IMG/VR virus record: IMGVR_UViG_3300031669_000016
Span: 1 to 64,000 of that record
Source of the DNA: a virus
Direction: 5' to 3' (one strand)
DNA length: 64,000 nucleotides
The position numbers and the translations under genes are program-made. The notes below the pieces were generated by a model that worked only from the letters and a program-made list of their open reading frames with translations, did no database searches and was not told the origin of the DNA. Below are positions 6,820 through 41,211 of this stretch, one piece after another. The first letter of the stretch is position 1. The number at the start of each line of letters is the position of its first letter.

Positions 6820-9708
6820 ATGTCCTCTCTAGCCCAGCGCGATACAAGCGGCACATTCACTCAGAACGTCGTTCTTGGTGAGGGGCCGGAAGCCATAACG
6901 CGGAGGACGCGGGCATTCAAGGTCTTCCCGCTTCCCGACGCCCCCGACGGCCGAAAGAGATTCAGGGTTGGCGGAAGCGTCGGCCCCATCCACTACCGCC
7001 TGAACCCCTTCTCTGCGGTCGAGCAGTACAAGGAGATCGACCTGACTATCGGCGCGGGGCGTGGGTGCGACCTGGAGATGATGGCGAACGGCTACCAGAT
7101 CCAGTGTTGGCACAGCCGGCCGAACGCGGTCAGCGCGGAAGAGCCGCTGTATGTGATGCGGTTCCTGAGGGCGGGGCACTGGGTGGAAGTCTCCCCCATC
7201 GCGCTGTACTACCAGAACGACCTCGGGCAGCGGCAGGCTGTGGGCGCGCTGAAGGGTGGCGTCAAGGCCGCGGTTGACAATGACGCCTACTCGGTGCGAT
7301 ATGCGGACGCGTTCGGGCCGGGCCTGAGCCTGCGCTATCAGCTCGTGCCCGACGAGTTCTACCCCGTCGTGGAGATAGCATCGGCGGCCGCGCTGCCAGC
7401 ACCCACGATAGACCCGCACGGCCTGCGCCTGGTCAAACTCTTCTCCATTCGCTGGGATACGGACACTGACCCCGTGGCGCTCACGCACGCGGACAAGCTG
7501 AATCCGGGCGAGCTCACCCTCGACAAGAGCAAGTTCGACAGTGCGGTGAAGGTCGAGCAGACCACCGCCTTCCCGGCTGAGGCGGTGGTGGATGTCGCCG
7601 CGAGGACAGAGCGCAGGCAGGCCTGGTGGTGGAAGCCGCCTCGGTGCTGGGATTCCTCGGAAGAAGTGCAGGACGTCCCCACCAAGTGGGAGTGGGCGGA
7701 GAATCAGGGACAGTTCGCAGTAGCGGTGAGCGTGGCGGTCGCTGACCTGGACCATGTCATCTACCCGGTATATCTTGATACGACGCCTATTGGCGAGGAG
7801 CAGGTGGGGGCACAAACAGATGATGCGGGGGCGTACGGCTCCACTTATCCGGGCACGAGTACGCTTCTCTCCCTTACCCAGTCGTACCTCTATTTTGGTG
7901 CCGGCACATCCACCTTCTACATGTTTGGGGCCCGGTTTACGACAATACCCATACCCAAGGACGCGACGATAGACTCGGCGTCGCTCTCCTTGCGCTCATA
8001 CACAAACTCCAGCGTGCAACTCGATATTACCATCGCCGCCGAAGCGGCCGACAGCGCCGTGACCTTCGATACCGTGCCAACGCACAGCGTCGTCACCGCG
8101 TACAATGCGAAGGGGGCACAGTCGGCGCAATGGGATGTCGGAACTGCCGCATGGGTTACAGATGGCTGGTATCAAAGCTCAGATATCGCCGCCGTAATAG
8201 AGGAGGTGACGGATCGGGCCGGCTGGAGTTCCGGGAATGATTTGGCGTTGATCGTATACAACACCTCATCGGATCGGCCTGGCTCCTCTGAGTATCGACG
8301 GTGCCACTCCTATGATCAGAGCGGCAACGTCTCCGGCCCTAAGTTCAATGCGAGCTACACGGAGGGGGGAGGGGCTGACGTCACAGTTTTTCCTGCCGCG
8401 CTGACTCTGACTGCCGCGGTACAGGGACCCATCCCGGTTATCACATCCTCGCCCTCGGCACTGGCCTTGACGGCCGCGCTGCCAACCCCCGAGCCGGTCG
8501 TGACCTCCACGCCCGCGGCACTCGCGCTCACCGCCGCTGTCCTGGCACCCACGGAGACCGGCACTGCCGTTGTCGAGCCATCAACGCTGGCCTTGGTGGC
8601 GGCGCTCCTCGCACCCGAGCCGACTGTTATCAGCACTCCTTCTCCGCTCGCTATATCTGCGGCGTTGGGCGCGCCTGAACCGATCATAACCATGATGCCG
8701 TCCGTACTGGCGCTGACGGCGGCGGTAGAAGCACCGGGGGTCATCGCGGGCGCGATAGTGGAACCAGCAGCAGTCCCCTTGACTGCGGCACTCCTCACAC
8801 CCGAACCAGTAGTGACGATGACTCCTGCGGCGCTGGCTCTGTCTATTGCAGTAGAGGCCCCGGAACCAACCATCATAGCCACGCCGGGCGCGCTCAGTTT
8901 GAATGCTGCCCTGGAAGCAGCCGAGCCAGTGGTCGTCACTACACCGGCCGCCCTGGTCCTGACGGGCGCGGTCGAGACACCGACCACGATAGCGGGCGCG
9001 GTTGTGGAACCGTCAGTGGTATCTCTTACCGCCACGGTCCTTGCGCCAGAACCCACCATCATCACGAGCCCAGCCTCCCTGGCCCTGACGCTCGCCCTCC
9101 TCGATCCTGAGGCGACAGTGGTGGTGACGCCTGCTGCCCTCGCGCTTGCACTCGGCATAGAGGCACCAGTACCAGTCATCATCGCCTCTGCCACGGCACT
9201 TGCCCTGACGCTTGGTCTGCCCGTGCCAGTGATCATCGCGACTACCATTGGGGATGTGATTGTGCTACCGGCGGCCCTCGCGATGACCTTGGGCCTTCTC
9301 GTCCCTGATCCACAGGTAAGTGTGCAACCCAATGCGTTGGCACTGACGGCCACACTCGAAGCTCCCGTTCCTACCATCATCATCGCGCCCGACGCGCTCG
9401 CCCTCGTTCTCAACCTGGAGACGCCAGTCGTGACTGCCGGCGCGGTTGTTCTGCCAGCCACTCTGGCGTTGACGCTGGGCCTACAGACGCCGGCATATGC
9501 GGTGATAGTGACTCCGGTGGCACTCTCGCTCACCGCAACCGTGGAGAGTCCTACGGTGACGGCCACCGCCATCGTCCTGCCAGTGGCCTTGGCATTGAGT
9601 CTTGGACTGCCATCGCCTGTCGTAGTTGTCGTCTCATCTGAATTGATGCGCCAACGTAGAACGTTGCGAATTACGGGGTCGAGGATCGGTACGAGGCAGA
9701 TACTATGA
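6820..9708 (+). CDS. large virion structural protein with about 20 hydrophobic Ala/Pro/Thr/Val/Leu repeats
   Basis: ORF 6784..9708; likely start MSSLAQRD at 6820. Central beta-sandwich-like segment (IPKDATIDSASLSL); C-terminal ~20-aa repeats of the form P-x-ALALTAA-xx-PEP. Confidence 0.6.
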   Translation: MSSLAQRDTSGTFTQNVVLGEGPEAITRRTRAFKVFPLPDAPDGRKRFRVGGSVGPIHYRLNPFSAVEQYKEIDLTIGAGRGCDLEMMANGYQIQCWHSRPNAVSAEEPLYVMRFLRAGHWVEVSPIALYYQNDLGQRQAVGALKGGVKAAVDNDAYSVRYADAFGPGLSLRYQLVPDEFYPVVEIASAAALPAPTIDPHGLRLVKLFSIRWDTDTDPVALTHADKLNPGELTLDKSKFDSAVKVEQTTAFPAEAVVDVAARTERRQAWWWKPPRCWDSSEEVQDVPTKWEWAENQGQFAVAVSVAVADLDHVIYPVYLDTTPIGEEQVGAQTDDAGAYGSTYPGTSTLLSLTQSYLYFGAGTSTFYMFGARFTTIPIPKDATIDSASLSLRSYTNSSVQLDITIAAEAADSAVTFDTVPTHSVVTAYNAKGAQSAQWDVGTAAWVTDGWYQSSDIAAVIEEVTDRAGWSSGNDLALIVYNTSSDRPGSSEYRRCHSYDQSGNVSGPKFNASYTEGGGADVTVFPAALTLTAAVQGPIPVITSSPSALALTAALPTPEPVVTSTPAALALTAAVLAPTETGTAVVEPSTLALVAALLAPEPTVISTPSPLAISAALGAPEPIITMMPSVLALTAAVEAPGVIAGAIVEPAAVPLTAALLTPEPVVTMTPAALALSIAVEAPEPTIIATPGALSLNAALEAAEPVVVTTPAALVLTGAVETPTTIAGAVVEPSVVSLTATVLAPEPTIITSPASLALTLALLDPEATVVVTPAALALALGIEAPVPVIIASATALALTLGLPVPVIIATTIGDVIVLPAALAMTLGLLVPDPQVSVQPNALALTATLEAPVPTIIIAPDALALVLNLETPVVTAGAVVLPATLALTLGLQTPAYAVIVTPVALSLTATVESPTVTATAIVLPVALALSLGLPSPVVVVVSSELMRQRRTLRITGSRIGTRQIL

Positions 9709-21179: not shown

Positions 21180-24100
21180 CTGCCAAGCGCTCAATATTCC
21201 TATTTGCTCGGAATAGGCTTGGACCCGGTCACCGTCCAAAGGCTGCAGGCACAGCTAATCCAGCTCGCCCAGCAGGCCTCGAAAGTCGGTACGGCCCAGG
21301 CGCGTACCACTGTGGGTGTCACCCCACAGCAAACCACCGCAACCCAACGCGCCACACGTCAGGCCGCGGCTGGCTTTGCTACTACAAGTAAGCAGGCTAC
21401 GCAGGCAACCCAAGCAGTCAAAGGCTTCGGTGGCGCGATGCAAGAGGCGGGTCGCGGAATCTCTCATGCCGCGGGCAAGGTCCTTCTGTGGAGCGTGGCA
21501 ACAGGTGCGATCTACGGTTCACTGCAAGCCCTCCGCGGTGCTGTCGAGACCATCAACGACGTGGACTTCGCGTTGACTGGTTTGAGGAAGGTATACGCCG
21601 GAAACATCGCTGATCTCGGTCAGATGAAGAGGGCCGCGGTCGATATGGCGATGGCTTATGGTTCTGGAATCTCCGACGTCCTGAATGGTATGCGCGACTG
21701 GGCTCGGCAGGGCTACCGTGCTCGTGATGTAATCGAGTTGACAAGGGTTAGCTTGCTTGCCCAGAACATCGCCGAGATGGATGCTGTACAAGCAACCCGC
21801 TACTTGACGGCGGCCCTGAATCAGTTTGATCTTGAGGCCACTCAAGCAATTACTGTCCTCGACACGTGGAACGAACTAAGCAACCGCTATGCCGCAACGA
21901 CGCAGGACATCGCGGAAGGCACTGCCCGCCTCGGCCGCACCGCCCACGATGCTGGCCTCTCGATCCAAGAAGCCAGCGCGATGGTCGCCGTTCTAGTCGA
22001 GCAGACGAAGCGATCGGGCCAAGAAATCGGAACGGCGATGCGTACCGTTCTGACCTACGCCTATCGCGAGCGCAACGTCAAAGAGCTTGAGAAGATCGGC
22101 ATTTATGTTCGCCGTGAGCGGGGCGAACTGCTGGCTATGATGGACGTTTTGACGCAGCTATCTGTCAAGTGGGAGGTACTTAGCGATACCCAGCGTCAGG
22201 CCATTGCTGAAGCCTTCGGCGTGCGGCGGGTCACCGAGTTCCGGACCCTAATCCAGGGCATGCCCGCCATCCTTGAGGCGACGCGCATCGCGTATGACAG
22301 CCAAGGCTCCGCGTTGCGGGAGAACATCATCTTTCTGGATTCCCTGCAGGTCCGTTATGGGCGGTTGAAGGCCGCGCTTCAAGCACTCGCGGTCGGAACG
22401 GAAACGCAGGATACGTTGAAGAGCATTGTCAGCGTACTCACCAGCCTCGTTACCGTTGTCGATAAGGTTGGCATCAAGACCATCTTCGCTGCGGGCGCTC
22501 TGGTTCTGATCACGCGCTACACCCAAGCCTACTCGGCCGCGCTGATTACGTTCCATACCCAAATGGTTTTGGGCACACAAGCAGTAGCGGCAGGTACGGT
22601 GACAATGGCGGCATGGCAACTCCAGGTCAATGCTGCAACACTTGCCCTGCAGCGATTCTGGGTCACACTTGGTCCTGTTGGTTGGGCCGTGGCCGCTGTT
22701 GGTGTTGCTTTCGGGACTTGGAAGGCCATTGATGCTTATGTTTATCGCCATGAGCGTGCGGCACGTGGACTGGAGCGACAGGCCGAGGACATTGAGCAAA
22801 CAACCCTGGAGGCGCTTCGCCGCGAAGAAGCTGGCTACCGCGCCCAGGTCGACGCGTTGACGCGGCGTGCCGAACTGATCCAATCCTTACGTGATCAGTA
22901 CGAAGCGGTTGGAAAGAGTACTGATAAGGCCGCGGACAAGCAAAAGCAGATGGCGAAGATCCTCGAACTGCTTCAAGCCGCAACGGGTGATGCCAGCTTA
23001 GCTTTACGCGACGGCTTAGCTCCCGCATTTGGCATCGTCGAGCGCGCCGCACAGAGCGCTCTTATCGGCATTACCGATGCGATGGACAAGATGCGGGCCA
23101 GTATTGCCCAAACACTGCGGGGACAAATCCAGGGTATTAGGGGCGATATCGAACTGCGCAGAGATGCCGTCGATAACTTTGCGAAGGCCGCGGAGAGAGA
23201 ACGCAAGACGGTCCTTGGCATGTTCGACACTATTGCTAAGGGGCAGAAGCTGTATGTTGACCCCTTTGCCGGTGTGGATCGAAAAGATGCCGAGGCTGTG
23301 TTGTCTCGGACACATGAGATGAAGGATCTGTCCGGCCTGCAGACCGGTGTTACCAACAGGCTCAGCAATGCGGTGGGTGAGTACAACGTTGCGGCGGGTC
23401 GTCGAATCGAGTTGGAGGGTACACTCAAGACCACTGAACAAGCCCTACTCGAACTCGAAATGGAACGCGCCGATCTTCCCAAAAGGATCGTATCGGATCC
23501 GGATCCGCTCGGCACTAAGAAAGCTGGTAAGAGCCTCCGCAGTTATCAGAATCAGGTCCGATCCGTTATCAATCTGGTACGCGAACTCCAACAGGCGATG
23601 CGGCGTATGGGCGCGGAAGGTCTCGGGCCGTGGTATCAAGAAATCCAACGCTTCGACCAGACTTGGGAGGATATGCAGGACCGCGCGCTGATGGCGTTGG
23701 ACCAGATCAATGAAACCTTGTCCGAAGATATCCCGGCACAGGCGCGCAAAGCCCTGCTTGGGGCACGTGACGAACTGGTCGGCGTGCTCAACACCTTCGC
23801 TACTCAATATCCCCTAGAGTTCCAGCGCGCATGGGAACGTGCACTGCATATCATCCGCGGCGGTGCTGAGGCATTACAGTTCCAGCTCCGTGAGTACCGC
23901 GAAGAGTTGGAGAAGACCCTAGCCGATTGGGTTCGGCGCGGTAAGATCACGCCCGACCAGGCAACGGAGATGCAACGGCTCGCCACGCTGACCAAGCAAT
24001 TCGAGGTCATCTCTAAGAGTGCCGATCTGCTGGAACGGCAGTACCAGTTCGAACGACAAATCACAGAACTCGAAATGGGGAAGGGTTGGGAGTTCTCGCG

Positions 24101-25904
24101 TGAACGCGCCGAGATGTTGCGGCGTGATGTGGAGCAGGCCGCCGGCGCGTTGACCGCGTTACTACTGGCTGCTCGGGCCGAGGGCGCTGTCGGTGAGACC
24201 ATCGGGGAGATTATAACGGAAATGCGCGCAAAGGCGTCTGATCTCGCCGATGCCTTACTTACCGCCGAACAGAAGCTCGTTGGTGCAAATGCAGCGGTGC
24301 TGGACTTCCGAGACGGCATTGTTGGGCTTGGTCAAGACCTCGAACTCTTCCTACTCGACCGACTCGGCGATGTTACCGGGAAGATCAAGTACCTACAAGA
24401 CATCTTCCAGCGCGCCCTAGACCTCAAAGATGTCAACGCTCAGATCGCGGCGTTCCGTAGCTTAGTCGAGCTGCACCAAGAGCTTGTGGAGGTACAGTAC
24501 GACTACTTGAAATTGCAGGCCGACACGGACACGTTCCAGCAGTTCGCGTTGTTACAGCAGCGTTACGGCGCGATGACCGACCCGCGCGAGCGCATCCGGC
24601 TCTGGAAAGAGATGCAGGACATCCAACGCGACTACGCTGACTGGCAACGCGAGGTTGCCGCGGGTATGGAGGACTACGGCCTTGACCCCGTGGCGAGGAC
24701 GACGCGTGAGATCGAGCGGCTGTGGGAGTTACTCGAAGAGTTTCCCCTAACAACAGAAGAGGGGCGGGGGTATTTCGACGAACTCCTCAGCCGCGCCACG
24801 CAGTTTGGTGATGCCTGGCGCGCCGAGGTGAAGCAGCTCAGTAGTAGCTTTAGCGATGCGATGGCCGATGCTATCCAAGGCACTGGCGATCTAACCGAAG
24901 CAATTGCTGGCATTTTCGAGGACATCGGACGGGAATGGCTGAGGACCTACATTAGCCGTCAGATGGAGGGCGTGTTCGAGGAGTTGAACCGCGCCGCTTA
25001 CCGCGCCCGTGGGGAACCTGTTGATAGAGCGACTGACATTATGGGCCGCCTCCGCGAGATCAAACTACCCGAGAAGCCAGAGCTTCCTGCTCTGGAAGGC
25101 CTCGACCTGCAATTGAGTAGCCTTGGTCAGACCTGTTTAGACGCGGCGACAAAAATGGAGCAGTCATTGGTCGCCATAGATGCGGACACTGCCGCTATCA
25201 TCGAGCACACCCGCGCACTGGTCGAGTCGGCGCAGCAGATCGGTGCTACGGGTGGTGGTGGGGCCGACTTCAATAGCTTGCTCCTTCAAGCAGCGGCTGG
25301 AGGCGGGGGTGAGGGTGGAGGCATTCCAGGAGGTGGGGATTACGGAGTGAAGCCGTGGCAAAAGTCGGTGATCGGAGCCGCTGGACTTTACAGTGCATAC
25401 GAAACTGGATCACCAATGGCAGGTATGGTTGGTGGTGCCTTAGCATTTGGCCCCTGGGGCGCTGTGGCCGGCCTTGGTCTTGGAATACTGGGCAAGCGTA
25501 AGAAGAAAAAGGAGGCGGATGCCCAGCAGGCCGCGTTCGCACAGAAATTGATGGCGAAATACGGCGCTTTCTGGTCCCCGCCTGATGTGATGTGGAGTAC
25601 TACTCCATTCCTTTCCGCAATGGACTATCCTGCCTACGCCTCTTACCGCGGCTACGCCGCACCGAAACCGTCCGCGGCATATCCTACCGTATCTGCGGCA
25701 TGGACCGCGCCGACGCGCTACCCCACTGTGACGGCTCCACAATTCGATCTGCGCGAACTGGCACGACGCATCCAGCCAATCACGGTGAACCTACACGGCA
25801 CGGGCTATACGGCGCGTGATGCGCGCCAGATCGCCGTTTCGATCCAACGCGAGCAGGCCCGGCTCTACGAGCGCGAACAAAAAGCCGGGGTTAGGGTGAG
25901 GTGA
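21180..25904 (+). CDS. tape measure protein (TP901-like core)
   Basis: About 1570 aa, helical and Ala-rich, with NELSNRYAATTQDIAEG...SGQEIGTAMRT core. Start is CTG 21180 (RBS-supported) or TTG 21204. Confidence 0.9.
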   Translation: MPSAQYSYLLGIGLDPVTVQRLQAQLIQLAQQASKVGTAQARTTVGVTPQQTTATQRATRQAAAGFATTSKQATQATQAVKGFGGAMQEAGRGISHAAGKVLLWSVATGAIYGSLQALRGAVETINDVDFALTGLRKVYAGNIADLGQMKRAAVDMAMAYGSGISDVLNGMRDWARQGYRARDVIELTRVSLLAQNIAEMDAVQATRYLTAALNQFDLEATQAITVLDTWNELSNRYAATTQDIAEGTARLGRTAHDAGLSIQEASAMVAVLVEQTKRSGQEIGTAMRTVLTYAYRERNVKELEKIGIYVRRERGELLAMMDVLTQLSVKWEVLSDTQRQAIAEAFGVRRVTEFRTLIQGMPAILEATRIAYDSQGSALRENIIFLDSLQVRYGRLKAALQALAVGTETQDTLKSIVSVLTSLVTVVDKVGIKTIFAAGALVLITRYTQAYSAALITFHTQMVLGTQAVAAGTVTMAAWQLQVNAATLALQRFWVTLGPVGWAVAAVGVAFGTWKAIDAYVYRHERAARGLERQAEDIEQTTLEALRREEAGYRAQVDALTRRAELIQSLRDQYEAVGKSTDKAADKQKQMAKILELLQAATGDASLALRDGLAPAFGIVERAAQSALIGITDAMDKMRASIAQTLRGQIQGIRGDIELRRDAVDNFAKAAERERKTVLGMFDTIAKGQKLYVDPFAGVDRKDAEAVLSRTHEMKDLSGLQTGVTNRLSNAVGEYNVAAGRRIELEGTLKTTEQALLELEMERADLPKRIVSDPDPLGTKKAGKSLRSYQNQVRSVINLVRELQQAMRRMGAEGLGPWYQEIQRFDQTWEDMQDRALMALDQINETLSEDIPAQARKALLGARDELVGVLNTFATQYPLEFQRAWERALHIIRGGAEALQFQLREYREELEKTLADWVRRGKITPDQATEMQRLATLTKQFEVISKSADLLERQYQFERQITELEMGKGWEFSRERAEMLRRDVEQAAGALTALLLAARAEGAVGETIGEIITEMRAKASDLADALLTAEQKLVGANAAVLDFRDGIVGLGQDLELFLLDRLGDVTGKIKYLQDIFQRALDLKDVNAQIAAFRSLVELHQELVEVQYDYLKLQADTDTFQQFALLQQRYGAMTDPRERIRLWKEMQDIQRDYADWQREVAAGMEDYGLDPVARTTREIERLWELLEEFPLTTEEGRGYFDELLSRATQFGDAWRAEVKQLSSSFSDAMADAIQGTGDLTEAIAGIFEDIGREWLRTYISRQMEGVFEELNRAAYRARGEPVDRATDIMGRLREIKLPEKPELPALEGLDLQLSSLGQTCLDAATKMEQSLVAIDADTAAIIEHTRALVESAQQIGATGGGGADFNSLLLQAAAGGGGEGGGIPGGGDYGVKPWQKSVIGAAGLYSAYETGSPMAGMVGGALAFGPWGAVAGLGLGILGKRKKKKEADAQQAAFAQKLMAKYGAFWSPPDVMWSTTPFLSAMDYPAYASYRGYAAPKPSAAYPTVSAAWTAPTRYPTVTAPQFDLRELARRIQPITVNLHGTGYTARDARQIAVSIQREQARLYEREQKAGVRVR

Positions 25905-37425: not shown

Positions 37426-38010
37426 TCATGGCTGAAGACGCTCCCTTACACGTTGGAGTCGACGCCGCGTCTTACGCAGCACACGGTACAAGGCGGGATC
37501 CTTGGTTATTTCCTCGCCTGCCAACAAGCGCCCCAACGCATCCAATTCGATGTCTGTGAGATGTGCCTTGATGAAGATCTCCTCCAAAGCTATCCTGTCC
37601 AGAACTACCCGTTCTGGATCTGCCGAGCCATCAACACACAAGGTTTCGCGCTGGTTCTCATCAAAGTCTTCTAGCGCCACGATCTGCGGGATGCGATCGG
37701 TGCGGCTGTCTCGAAAAACTGAGCTGGGTATTCGTATCAGGAAGGAGTGGCGGAGCCGCCATTTCTGTATCGCTCGTGTTGCAGTCTTTTTCAGATAGGC
37801 CCCTTGCTGTGCCATCGGTCGTGTTGTGTCCAGTCGGTTGCGCACCGCATCCATAATTGCTACGCGGCCCACCTGCGCGAGGTCTTCCTGTTTGTCCCGA
37901 TCAGTTGTGAGTCTGCGTGCCTCGCGCTGCAATACCTTGTCGAAGCATGCCAGCCAGTAGTCCAGTACGGCGGGATCGTTGGTGCCGCGCTGTTTCGACT
38001 GACCAGCCAA
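37426..38010 (-). CDS. sigma70-family-like factor
   Basis: EDLAQVGRVAIMDAV resembles region 2; C-terminal helical region-4-like segment. Confidence 0.7.
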   Translation of the reverse strand: MAGQSKQRGTNDPAVLDYWLACFDKVLQREARRLTTDRDKQEDLAQVGRVAIMDAVRNRLDTTRPMAQQGAYLKKTATRAIQKWRLRHSFLIRIPSSVFRDSRTDRIPQIVALEDFDENQRETLCVDGSADPERVVLDRIALEEIFIKAHLTDIELDALGRLLAGEEITKDPALYRVLRKTRRRLQRVRERLQP

Positions 38011-38901
38011 TCAGAACTCACCGCCATCCTTCCACTTCGTGGTGTAGTCAGCACCTACGGTAACTGGCAGTCGGGCCTGCCAACGCCCCCGCCAACGGTT
38101 GTAGTTGAGCGTATACATCAACTGATCGTAGTTCAGAAGGCCGGCCGGGAGCTCTCTGATGCCCAACCCTTCGGCGACTGCACGCGCCTGATCACCATAG
38201 GCAGGTTGGGAACCGGCCGCACCTCCACCATGGTCGGCTCGAATCGGTAAGGTGCGGATGTGCCATCCCGCTGCCAACCACGCACAGCAGACCTCGCGGT
38301 CGTACCAGTGATGGAGGCCGGGATAGTCCTGATCGAGAAGAGTTGGGATTGTGTCGGTACGATAGAAGATGCCGCAGCCGTCAAGAGTAGCCGAAGCCAT
38401 TCCGTCATCAGGTGTCCACGCGCCATGGATGCGCCATATCTCACCGGTTCCGTTGCCCCCCCATTGCTTACCAATCAGACGGGAGTGGGTACCGATACGC
38501 CCCCCATCCGGTGCCAGTCCGAACGCACCGACTAAACCGGCAAGGCCCAGCTTCGCATCTTCCTCGAAGGCGTGTGCGATACAAAGATCCCATCCGACAT
38601 CCCAGATCAAGACATCGTAATGGATGAAGGCGAGGATGTCGGCATCGGTGTAGTCGGCGGCGTATCGGATCGACTCGAAAACGCCCAAGCTTTGATCCGG
38701 CACGAAGTAGCGGGTGTGTCCCCGGTCTTTCGTGATGGTGCCGCAAAGTCCGGCATGCGTTGTAATCACGTCGAGATCAGGGGTGTTGTCGACAACAATG
38801 ATCTCGGTGCCCGAATCGGAAACTGTCCGCACGACCTGAGCAAGACATGCCTCAAGTAGGTCTGTTCGACCAAGTACTGGAATCGCGACTGCGACCCTCA
38901 T
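38011..38901 (-). CDS. glycosyltransferase family 2
   Basis: VAIPV, IIVVDN, FIHYDV, LDG and HWYD motifs. Confidence 0.85.
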   Translation of the reverse strand: MRVAVAIPVLGRTDLLEACLAQVVRTVSDSGTEIIVVDNTPDLDVITTHAGLCGTITKDRGHTRYFVPDQSLGVFESIRYAADYTDADILAFIHYDVLIWDVGWDLCIAHAFEEDAKLGLAGLVGAFGLAPDGGRIGTHSRLIGKQWGGNGTGEIWRIHGAWTPDDGMASATLDGCGIFYRTDTIPTLLDQDYPGLHHWYDREVCCAWLAAGWHIRTLPIRADHGGGAAGSQPAYGDQARAVAEGLGIRELPAGLLNYDQLMYTLNYNRWRGRWQARLPVTVGADYTTKWKDGGEF

Positions 38902-38940
38902 CTAGTCTCACCCCGATGTATCCCACCAACAATCTACTAT

Positions 38941-38969
38941 AGTATACCACAGTACCTACGGGTTGTCAT
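38941..38969 (-). promoter_or_regulatory. sigma70-type promoter of the GT2-sigma-phosphatase operon
   Basis: Minus strand reads ATGACA (38969-38964), 17 nt, TATACT (38946-38941), with a TG extension. Confidence 0.7.
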
Positions 38970-39022
38970 CTTTGCATGCCTAGATCCTACCCATAATCGA
39001 AGATTTGAGGCGAAAGCTTCGA

Positions 39023-39400
39023 CCAGCATCCTCGCGCGCGTAGGAGTGACTGTGTGGTATACCATAGTAATCGTGCCCTCGCGCGCGTGGAAGTAACCAA
39101 CAGTAAGGCGGCAACGGAACCGGCGAGGTCGTCGTGCCCTCGCGCGCGTGGAGGTAACGTGTGGCGCGTTGGGTTTCTGTGGTTTGCTGGTCGTGCCCTC
39201 GCGCGCGTGGGAGTAACGGCCAATATCCTACCCATCTTAGGCAACACATCGTCGTGCCCTCGCGTGCGTGGAAATAACCGCCCTTGTTTCGTCACTGAAG
39301 GCGGTCCAACCGTCGTGCCCTCGCGCGCGAGGGAGTAACCCGGAGGCCGCCAGGAAGAGGGGGAATCCAGAGGTCGTGCCCTCGCGCGCGAGGGAGTAAC
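39023..39400 (-). CRISPR. CRISPR array, 7 repeats of 28 bp (GTTACTCCCWCGCGCGCGAGGGCACGAC), 6 spacers
   Basis: Repeats at 39373, 39312, 39251, 39190, 39131, 39070 and a degenerate copy at 39023. Spacers are 33, 33, 33, 31, 33 and 19 nt. Palindromic core CCCTCGC-GC-GCGAGGG. The two cas-proximal repeats are identical and the most distal one is the most degenerate. Confidence 0.95.
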
Positions 39401-39535
39401 ACTGCCATACCTATCGTCCAAACATGTTTCATCACAATCTCTACCCTCCCTGCGCGCGCCCCGGCGAGGCCGGGGATTAGGATTTGATCCGCGACCAGCC
39501 TTCTCCGGGCTGGTGGCAGGTCGGGGACCCACGAC
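39401..39535 (-). ncRNA. candidate tracrRNA/scaffold plus leader
   Basis: Two anti-repeat segments (39530-39535 and 39442-39459) and hairpins (39494-39514, 39459-39475) between the cas stop codon and the first repeat. Confidence 0.55.
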
Positions 39536-40899
39536 TATTTAGCCCCCACTCTCAACGCTCCAAAGGAGCGGTGGAACCCTCGATAGCCTCCTGATGTATT
39601 CCACTCCGCCTTGCGATAAAACGCCCGCCGAGCGATGTTCACAGCAGCTGCCTCGTCGGCGTCGAAATTGACATCACAAGCCGGACAGTAGAGATCTTCA
39701 CCTTCCCGTTTGGCATCCTCCCCACACCGAGGACAAATCAACGATGAGTAAGCAGCGAAGACCTCGCGTGGTGGTAACATACCAGCCATCCGCAACTTGT
39801 AGCTGAGGATATGACCCATCTTGGCATACTGGGAACGTATAAATGCGCCGCTTGTCTGTAGGTTGAGATCTTCCATCACTACCAACGAGTGGTGCTCAAC
39901 GGCCAACGCAACCAACGCATTGGCGATTGTGTGGAGCATCTGCTCTTGGTGTCGACGCTGCCAGGCTTGACGACGCACATGCCGACCACGCCTCTGTGCG
40001 GCCTGGCGCTTCCGTCCCAATAGGATCTGTAGAGGACGCACGTCCCGACCAAGGCTCCCAACTCTGAGTGGTCGACCCTCTTTGTCTATGATTGCGTATG
40101 CCGCCTGTTTGATGATGCCGCGATCAACTCCAAGATAGGTTTCCTCTTCACCCCGCTCCATACTCTCGACTTGGAACTCGAAGCTTATATGTAGGAAGTA
40201 CTCGCCATCGCGCCGACAAAGGCAGGCACAGCGCGCCTTCCCTTTCGTGAGATATTCCTCTTCGTGCCATATCCCAAACGCGAGTGGGAAACGCAACCTT
40301 GTAGGCTTCTGTGGCTTCGGCTGCACCGGTAGTGATACCACCCACTTCTCGTTGTCGAGTCGTTCGAGAGCAAAATCTCGGGCGCGTACATAGAGAAGCG
40401 GCCTGACAATCTCGCGCTCCTCACGTAGCAGACGGGATTGCCACGCTTGGTGGTCGAATGGATCACCAACCCACTCAGCGGCCTCTGCAAGGGCCTTCTG
40501 GTACCCATCAGACTGATATCCGTACAGTGGTGAGGGGTACTGGGGTTCATCAGTTGCGTCCTCATGGTTCTTCCTATCTTCCCAGGCCTGTCGTAGTTTG
40601 CAGTACGAAACAAGGTTCGTTAGGATATCTGATACTAAGCCGTCATATAGAGCGCTTGGCAAATCCGTTGCTGATAGCAAAGGACGGATTTCCTTCATTG
40701 CATTGAAGGGGCTGGGGAGTCTCTTACCATCGTGGAGATCACGAATCCACAGATCAGCCATGGGGCGGCAGCGCTCCAATGTATCTATATAGGCCTTGCT
40801 GTAACGGGCGAATACCTGGTCTAGGAGGGCACGTTTTCCAGTACCGGGATTGTATAGTTTGAGGATGGCTGTTTTCTGTACGATGACTGTGCACCTCAT
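39535..40899 (-). CDS. compact type V effector, TnpB/Cas12f-like RuvC nuclease
   Basis: 454 aa; RuvC-I LGVDRG, RuvC-II VVMEDL, Zn finger CPRC...CPAC, RuvC-III DADEAAAVNIA; adjacent to the CRISPR array. Confidence 0.9.
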   Translation of the reverse strand: MRCTVIVQKTAILKLYNPGTGKRALLDQVFARYSKAYIDTLERCRPMADLWIRDLHDGKRLPSPFNAMKEIRPLLSATDLPSALYDGLVSDILTNLVSYCKLRQAWEDRKNHEDATDEPQYPSPLYGYQSDGYQKALAEAAEWVGDPFDHQAWQSRLLREEREIVRPLLYVRARDFALERLDNEKWVVSLPVQPKPQKPTRLRFPLAFGIWHEEEYLTKGKARCACLCRRDGEYFLHISFEFQVESMERGEEETYLGVDRGIIKQAAYAIIDKEGRPLRVGSLGRDVRPLQILLGRKRQAAQRRGRHVRRQAWQRRHQEQMLHTIANALVALAVEHHSLVVMEDLNLQTSGAFIRSQYAKMGHILSYKLRMAGMLPPREVFAAYSSLICPRCGEDAKREGEDLYCPACDVNFDADEAAAVNIARRAFYRKAEWNTSGGYRGFHRSFGALRVGAK

Positions 40900-41211
40900 C
40901 TATTTCTTCATCAACCCTCGCTCTTCAAACAGTTTCTTGAGCTGGGTCCGCCACCAGCCCAACAGGCCATCCCGCAACAGCAGGGTGATGAGGCGGGCGA
41001 CAACATAGGGGTGATGCGCCGCGATCCAGATCTGGTGCTGTAAGATCGGATAGGGTTCGGTGTCGTTGCTATGGGTTGCATCGACCTGGGCGGGGATGCA
41101 AACGCAGGCGTTGCAGACCATCGATTGCTTCGACCCATCAGGCCACGTTATCATAACGGTTACATAGCCTTCTTCTTCGAGTTGAACCGCTTTGAACTGG
41201 GACTCTGTCAT
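40900..41211 (-). CDS. hypothetical protein immediately upstream of the cas gene
   Basis: 103 aa; its stop abuts the cas ATG. Confidence 0.55.
   Translation of the reverse strand: MTESQFKAVQLEEEGYVTVMITWPDGSKQSMVCNACVCIPAQVDATHSNDTEPYPILQHQIWIAAHHPYVVARLITLLLRDGLLGWWRTQLKKLFEERGLMKK

Follow-up and report, generated by a model that had tools for sequence, protein, structure and literature searches.

The locus considered here raises the question of where the second oldest spacer of a small phage-borne CRISPR array was taken from, and which motif would license its target. The window, that is, the whole stretch of DNA that was analysed, comprises the first 64 kb of a single contig of 75,174 bp. 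In the explanation that we consider probable, spacer 5 (S5) is a spacer from a homologue of the neighbouring GT2 glycosyltransferase gene, situated in the old part of an array that is read from the minus strand and goes with a nuclease-competent Cas12f-like effector, its licensing motif being probably CCA or CCN. The match, its statistics, the codon pattern, the homologue residues, the flank, the cassette-free siblings, and the intact RuvC residues come directly from the data; a source phage, a PAM, drift after acquisition, and any present-day activity are what we infer.

The phage, its array, and its effector

The contig is that of a tailed phage, as identified by its tail tape-measure gene (21204-25904; PHROG, 2e-76), and the presence of a repeat-spacer array on the same 75,174 bp places the array on a viral genome. 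Read along the minus strand, the locus consists of an effector gene, an intergenic stretch of 134 nt, the CRISPR array, a GT2-like gene, and a gene for a protein with sigma-70 region 2:

38969-40905, minus strand: whole cassette (effector gene, intergenic RNA region, and array), 1,937 nt
39535-40899, minus strand: Cas12f/TnpB-like effector gene, 454 aa (Pfam Cas12f1-like_TNB, 3.7e-10, with a RuvC match; PDB alignments; phrog_506 transposase)
39023-39400, minus strand: CRISPR array of six 28-nt repeats (starting at 39373, 39312, 39251, 39190, 39131, and 39070) and a degenerate terminal one (at 39023)
39159-39189, minus strand: spacer 4 (S4), 31 nt, whose near-match is the second site in the PAM argument
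39098-39130, minus strand: spacer 5, 33 nt, second oldest array unit, flanked by repeats 39070-39097 and 39131-39158
38011-38901, minus strand: GT2-like glycosyltransferase gene, 296 aa, the gene that follows the CRISPR cassette downstream (Pfam Glyco_tranf_2_5 and Glycos_transf_2, each slightly under its gathering score)
37426-38010, minus strand: weak sigma-70 region 2 protein (E = 8e-4, under the Pfam cut-off)

The effector encoded beside the array is a miniature protein that possesses RuvC and TNB domains (PF07282) and an intact catalytic triad. Its RuvC residues D, E, and D are contained in the segments GVDRG, MEDLN, and DADE, which were aligned to CnCas12f1 (8HR5) and ISDra2 TnpB, and the nuclease-dead RuvC that is a feature of dCas12f-sigmaE systems is therefore not found here. 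CnCas12f1 is the only Cas12f among solved structures that is reached by sequence at E<1e-3 (E = 1.2e-4); the similarity is weak and limited to residues 229-428, which represent the RuvC/TNB part, and hence says nothing on PAM reading. Relatives of the effector were not found in IMG/VR. Two genes downstream of the Cas12f-like gene is the one for the weak sigma-70 region 2 protein, an arrangement reminiscent of dCas12f-sigmaE systems (PMC13472631), except that in the present case RuvC keeps its catalytic residues.

The two repeats closest to the cas gene have the consensus sequence and the four older ones carry between one and four changes each, a pattern of decay away from the cas gene that fits a leader on the cas side and transcription from the minus strand; the minus-strand orientation of the guides assumed in the preliminary description is coherent. 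Together the four older repeats have accumulated 11 changes in 112 nt, five of which are G>A on the plus strand; in the sense of the guide these are C>U and would keep G-U pairing with a partner RNA. The array, small as it is, holds two repeat subtypes: the two newest repeats contain a perfect 8-bp palindrome, which in all four older ones (39070-39278) is disrupted by an A>T change at repeat position 19. In another soil run, a contig of 939 nt could be aligned over 39373-39556, from the first repeat through the intergenic RNA region into the effector gene at its 3' end, with gaps at 22 positions; the other 600 nt of this contig do not match the array and may belong to a related cassette with different spacers.

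The likeness of spacer 5 to the GT2 gene

The sites at which the guides of spacers 5 and 4 resemble the phage that carries them are as follows:

38437-38469, plus strand: protospacer-like site within the resident GT2 gene, at the codons for KQWGGNGTGEI
38434-38436, plus strand: CCA, 5' flank of the GT2 protospacer-like site and candidate PAM
21324-21357, plus strand: CCA flank (21324-21326, a Pro codon) and near-match of guide 4, inside the tape-measure gene

The reverse complement of 39098-39130 aligns to 38437-38469 without gaps at 24 of 33 positions. Mismatches fall at guide positions 1, 3, 7, 22, 25, 26, 28, 31, and 33, and positions 8-21 make up a perfect core of 14 nt. When the plus strand of the spacer is read in the sense and frame of the GT2 gene it gives QQ*GGNGTGEV, compared with KQWGGNGTGEI in the gene itself. 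Every figure of the preliminary description on this point (the 24/33 match, the 14-nt core, the coordinates, the frame reading, and the CCA flank) was reproduced. Six of the nine mismatches to the resident gene occupy third codon positions (binomial p = 0.042), as do six of the eight (p = 0.020) to the corresponding allele of L002 (Ga0307377_10020659), a sibling phage fragment of 6,044 bp with 89-94% DNA identity by blastn.

When compared with all 75,174 bp of the genome, 11 of 2000 shuffled versions of the spacer and 6 of 2000 33-mers from a second-order Markov model had a match of 24/33 or better. That a spacer of other origin should resemble the neighbouring gene by pure chance is hardly credible. 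The score is admittedly modest, since 0.3-0.55% of random 33-mers attain it and the family-wise figure over six spacers is about 2-3%, but the reading frame, the wobble bias, the residues shared with homologues, the uniqueness of the peptide, and the adjacency of the gene to the array are all independent of the raw score. The uniqueness is strict within this genome, where a six-frame translation contains the hexapeptide GGNGTG only twice, namely in the GT2 gene and in spacer 5. Beyond it, the coding pattern [W/*]GGNGTGE[I/V] is absent from IMG/VR and has two matches in 596 Gb of GTDB genomes, neither of which is a GT2 relative by tblastn. These two lie on contigs of metagenome-assembled genomes (L003, 7103-7132; L004, 3556-3582), where they encode WGGNGTGEI in otherwise unrelated contexts and look like chance.

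The other spacers score at best 19-20/33 against the genome that carries them, with the exception of S4 (29/31), which matches 21327-21357 in the tape-measure gene, and S6 (16/19), which matches 38935-38953 in a promoter region. Judged by these resemblances to the carrier genome, spacers derived from kin would seem to be a habit of the array. The promoter-like site in question (38941-38969, minus strand), upstream of the GT2 gene, consists of ATGACA and TG-TATACT separated by 17 nt (10/12); the S6-like match covers its -10 element, and its -35 element directly borders the junction of the cassette.

Close relatives of the GT2 protein are few. A search of 5.8 billion clusters returned only four at E<=1e-3, with identities of 94% (P0001), 50% (P0002), 44% (P0003), and 40% (P0004), and a profile search of 1.84 billion representatives added 1992 remote relatives. 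Among the best 151 of these 1992 profile hits, only the window protein, L002, P0001, and P0002, which make up the nearest clade, have WGGNGTGE[IV]W; P0003 and P0005 have degenerate versions of the motif, and more distant members have other sequences. The residues by which the spacer departs from the resident protein are found in this company, QQ in P0001 and L002 and V in P0002 and P0003. Agreement between spacer 5 and the siblings at third codon positions is just 5/11, which points to a distant relative rather than a 93-94% sibling as the source. The GT2 allele of L002 matches the spacer at 25/33 (carrier 24/33) and likewise mismatches it at positions 1, 3, and 7.

Database searches returned no closer candidate for the source. 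A perfect or near-perfect S5 protospacer was not found in IMG/VR, JGI metagenomes, GTDB genomes, or GenBank phages, and the degenerate pattern QQ[W/*]GGNGTGE[IV] retrieved nothing from IMG/VR and the sibling L002 alone from the JGI metagenomes. At the DNA level, GT2 relatives were detected neither in IMG/VR, with a single protein or an alignment as query, nor in GTDB genomes, and tblastn of GT2 against GenBank phages returned none. With regard to the remaining spacers, IMG/VR contained no match to the PAM-proximal 22-mer of either S1 or S2, and the array as query against GenBank phages, through which S3 was solely covered, gave only noise at E>=1.

The reading of spacer 5 in the GT2 frame is interrupted by TAA at the position of a Trp (TGG in close homologues), which corresponds to PAM-distal guide positions 25-27. 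The open reading frame is consequently not kept, and spacer 5 as it stands is no copy of any functional gene; either a change after acquisition or a non-functional source is required. The stop most likely arose after acquisition, by two transitions that would be of the C-to-U type in the sense of the guide, as in the older repeats; the putative changes are at positions 25-26, at the PAM-distal end. Given the five G>A among the changes of the older repeats, two G>A in spacer guanines are unsurprising and match the decay of their surroundings. The residue at the stop position is not invariant in homologues, being Met in P0003 and Leu in P0006, and a single change from a homologue with another residue there would be an alternative route to TAA. 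A source with another genetic code was considered and rejected, as TAA does not specify Trp in any code and there is no other sign of recoding.

A better match in an unrelated gene, which the preliminary description had named as a point against its own proposal, was half found. The sole exact match of a 22-nt core in IMG/VR belongs to L001, where a 114-aa phrog_4105 protein (7397-7741, minus strand) contains LLGGNGTGEE and aligns to the spacer at 25/33. The spacer could then have come from an unrelated gene with GGNGTGE, for instance a GC-rich phrog_4105 member beside holins, the GT2 likeness being a coincidence of a glycine-rich peptide and codon bias. Such convergence has some appeal in that [AL]LGGNGTGE is conserved in phrog_4105 next to holin genes, in ORF16 of Lactobacillus phage A2, a gut phage, and partly two Streptomyces phages (L005-L008), and in that TAA would be a single change away from TTA, a Leu codon, at the stop position; by nucleotide identity alone the GT2 alleles have no advantage over the unrelated gene, which weakens the argument from such identity, though not the overall case. 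We nevertheless regard it as improbable. One codon-identical member of a large motif family is expected in about 1e11 bases, the L001 site mismatches guide positions 1-2 and is flanked by AAG, and the family has KLL..E and KAL..A where the spacer has QQ and V, which fit the GT2 clade only. The carrier genome, moreover, is without a phrog_4105 homologue, whereas its GT2 site is unique and situated in the gene adjoining the array, and a GGNGTGE-coding site would arise by chance in the carrier with a probability of roughly 1e-4 to 1e-3 for 150,000 positions. The size of the collection, the unique and adjacent site, the fit of QQ and V, and the lack of phrog_4105 in the carrier are the reasons for which a GT2 origin is preferred. 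As an observation in its own right, phrog_4105, a family of unknown function, has the same heptapeptide as the motif of the GT2 clade, and one of its members is codon-identical over 22 nt.

The proposal of the preliminary description that spacer 5 derives from a GT2 homologue is hence upheld by the null statistics, the wobble-biased mismatches, and the homologue residues QQ and V, and its capture from a diverged GT2 homologue of a related phage is well supported and likely. The allele would have belonged to a more distant relative than those sampled as siblings, and would have entered the phage-borne array near what is now its old end. A crRNA made from the spacer would pair with the stretch coding for GGNGTGE-V in such a homologue; the resident allele and those of the 93-94% siblings, which have three PAM-proximal differences (positions 1, 3, and 7) and a further five or six distal ones, would not be targets. 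Spacer 5 would then be the record of, and perhaps still a weapon in, a conflict with an unsampled cousin phage.

The CCA flank as a candidate PAM

Read on the opposite strand, the CCA at 38434-38436 is the Trp codon of the GE[IV]W motif, and this Trp is kept in 10 of 11 aligned homologues. Since tryptophan is encoded by TGG alone, CCA would also be expected beside a protospacer in a homologue, on the non-target strand and directly 5' of the stretch coding for GGNGTGE-V; the PAM guess accordingly does not depend on finding the target, which makes it more robust. The near-self site of spacer 4 has CCA at its 5' side as well, in a genome where CCA accounts for 0.020 of trinucleotides. If the sites of S5 and S4 are read in the opposite orientation their flanks are GGT and GAC, which have no motif in common. 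The third self-like site, that of S6, is flanked by ATC in the window and by CAC in the sibling L002.

On this pattern of flanks, 5'-CCA or CCN is plausible as the licensing motif, with the case standing roughly in balance: it would be derived from two imperfect self-like sites, beside a third with ATC or CAC. The CCA/CCN PAM of the preliminary description has thus gained from the conserved Trp codon and from the CCA beside the S4 site, but the argument is still one of two sites, and S6 does not follow it. Much the same applies to the protospacers through which that description would have the PAM read, in that self-like sites with CCA are present for S4 and S5, but no true protospacer was found for S1, S2, or S5 in the collections searched.

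The preliminary description had also set a C-rich PAM against the T-rich motifs of most Cas12 nucleases, a contrast that is overstated within Cas12f (PMC7229846; PMC10090079). Among type V-F nucleases, a 5' C-rich PAM was shown in 2020 for a V-U3-derived Cas12f (Karvelis et al.; PMC7229846), RhCas12f1 recognizes 5'-CCD, with CCA the best (Kong et al., 2023; PMC10090079), and the C-rich PAM specificity of CnCas12f1 (PDB 8HR5) is the subject of a structural paper (PMC13186708). A C-rich PAM in Cas12f is therefore already established and not novel. The present system is like these in having an effector of 454 aa with RuvC and TNB beside an array, and the candidate CCA is the best PAM of enRhCas12f1; it is unlike them in that its PAM is deduced from two imperfect self-like sites.

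Cassette-free siblings and the cassette junction

In L002 the 1,937-nt cassette is replaced by 31 bases (L002 1904-1934). The joint from 38968 to 40906 with the same 31 unrelated bases also occurs in contigs from four soil metagenome runs, and in the probable source run (X1) the cassette-free form has a depth of 7.25 compared with about 85 for the cassette-bearing one, or about 8%. Cassette-free siblings consequently live alongside the carrier, and related viruses co-occur with it in the four soil runs. Among the differences listed from the Logan contigs, beyond which there were 187 further ones, none was a variant inside 38437-38469 or in the array.

These siblings bear on the suggestion of the preliminary description that mismatches at seed positions 1, 3, and 7 protect the phage from its own guide. 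The mismatches would indeed spare the carrier, but they are present in the cassette-free L002 too and are therefore ancestral rather than a carrier-specific adaptation to the cassette; S5 cannot hit L002 either. An acquisition from the phage's own gene followed by escape was rejected on similar grounds, in that the nine changes are mostly synonymous and common to the cassette-free sibling, which is unlike escape.

The possibility that guide 5 binds its own GT2 gene, or guide 6 the promoter of that gene, and so tunes a GT2/sigma-like operon in the manner of CRISPRi or of a dCas12f with a sigma factor, is very unlikely. RNA-guided transcription systems of the dCas12f-sigmaE kind exist (PMC13472631), the operon immediately downstream begins with the gene that contains the match, and a weak sigma-70 region 2 protein follows at 37426-38010, but nine mismatches that include positions 1, 3, and 7 make a stable R-loop unlikely, the RuvC D/E/D is kept, unlike in dCas12f, and a cassette-free sibling shows the same mismatches.

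Two of the three self-like matches are located no more than 0.53 kb from the junction at 38968/38969, the S6-like one at 15 nt and the S5-like one at 499 nt. By our own arithmetic, over about 73 kb, random placement would produce such clustering with a probability of about 6e-4. It may reflect homing or linkage, or a locally biased capture of spacers. The first of these would make the cassette an RNA-guided selfish or homing module, in which S6 and S5, the oldest spacers, were selected and retained for their match to alleles flanking the insertion point, empty in cassette-free kin; this would refine the explanation of spacer 5 as a capture from a GT2 homologue and would not exclude it. We consider such a module unlikely, though not negligibly so. 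The nearness of 38935-38953 and 38437-38469 to the junction and the co-occurrence of cassette-free forms in the same soils speak for it; against it, the flank of S6 is not CCA, and L002, the only cassette-free sibling read, has the same S5 and S6 mismatches as the carrier, so that the guides would not distinguish the two.

The omega-RNA guides of IS200/IS605 TnpB proteins reportedly equal the DNA that flanks the element (Meers et al., 2023, Nature). The present cassette resembles those elements in that its nuclease is related to TnpB and its oldest guides resemble DNA just outside it, but it differs from them in having a true repeat-spacer array and matches that are imperfect (16/19 and 24/33) and set back by 15 and 499 nt from the junction, rather than a guide identical to the abutting DNA. 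No transposon ends were identified for the cassette.

Other parallels are provided by the mini-arrays that the Sulfolobales viruses SPV1 and SPV2 direct against related viruses (Medvedeva et al., 2019; PMC6858448) and by the compact arrays of huge phages (Al-Shayeb et al., 2020; PMC7162821). Common to all are a short viral array, spacers that resemble genes of relatives, and missing adaptation genes, and, as with other virus-borne arrays, the samples contain relatives that have the element together with relatives that lack it. The present array differs from those of SPV1/SPV2 and the huge phages in having a miniature effector of its own and a host genome that is a 75-kb siphovirus-like phage, and from kin-targeting virus arrays in that no relative that matches S5 perfectly was found and the siblings are no better targets than the carrier (25/33 vs. 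24/33).

That viruses target their kin by CRISPR and that Cas12f includes C-rich PAMs is already known. If spacer 5 was indeed captured from a GT2 homologue, it documents a conflict, past or still ongoing, of this soil phage lineage with a more distant cousin that shares a rare GT2 gene, and the locus offers a cheap and testable PAM guess, 5'-CCA, for an uncharacterised Cas12f-like nuclease of 454 aa. Of the features described, only the clustering of old-spacer matches at the cassette junction could point to something new: if homing were true, rivals in a co-infected cell would be cut beside the site and would either die or be repaired from the carrier, copying the 1.9-kb Cas12f cassette, and the module would be the CRISPR-array counterpart, acting between phages, of transposon retention by TnpB.
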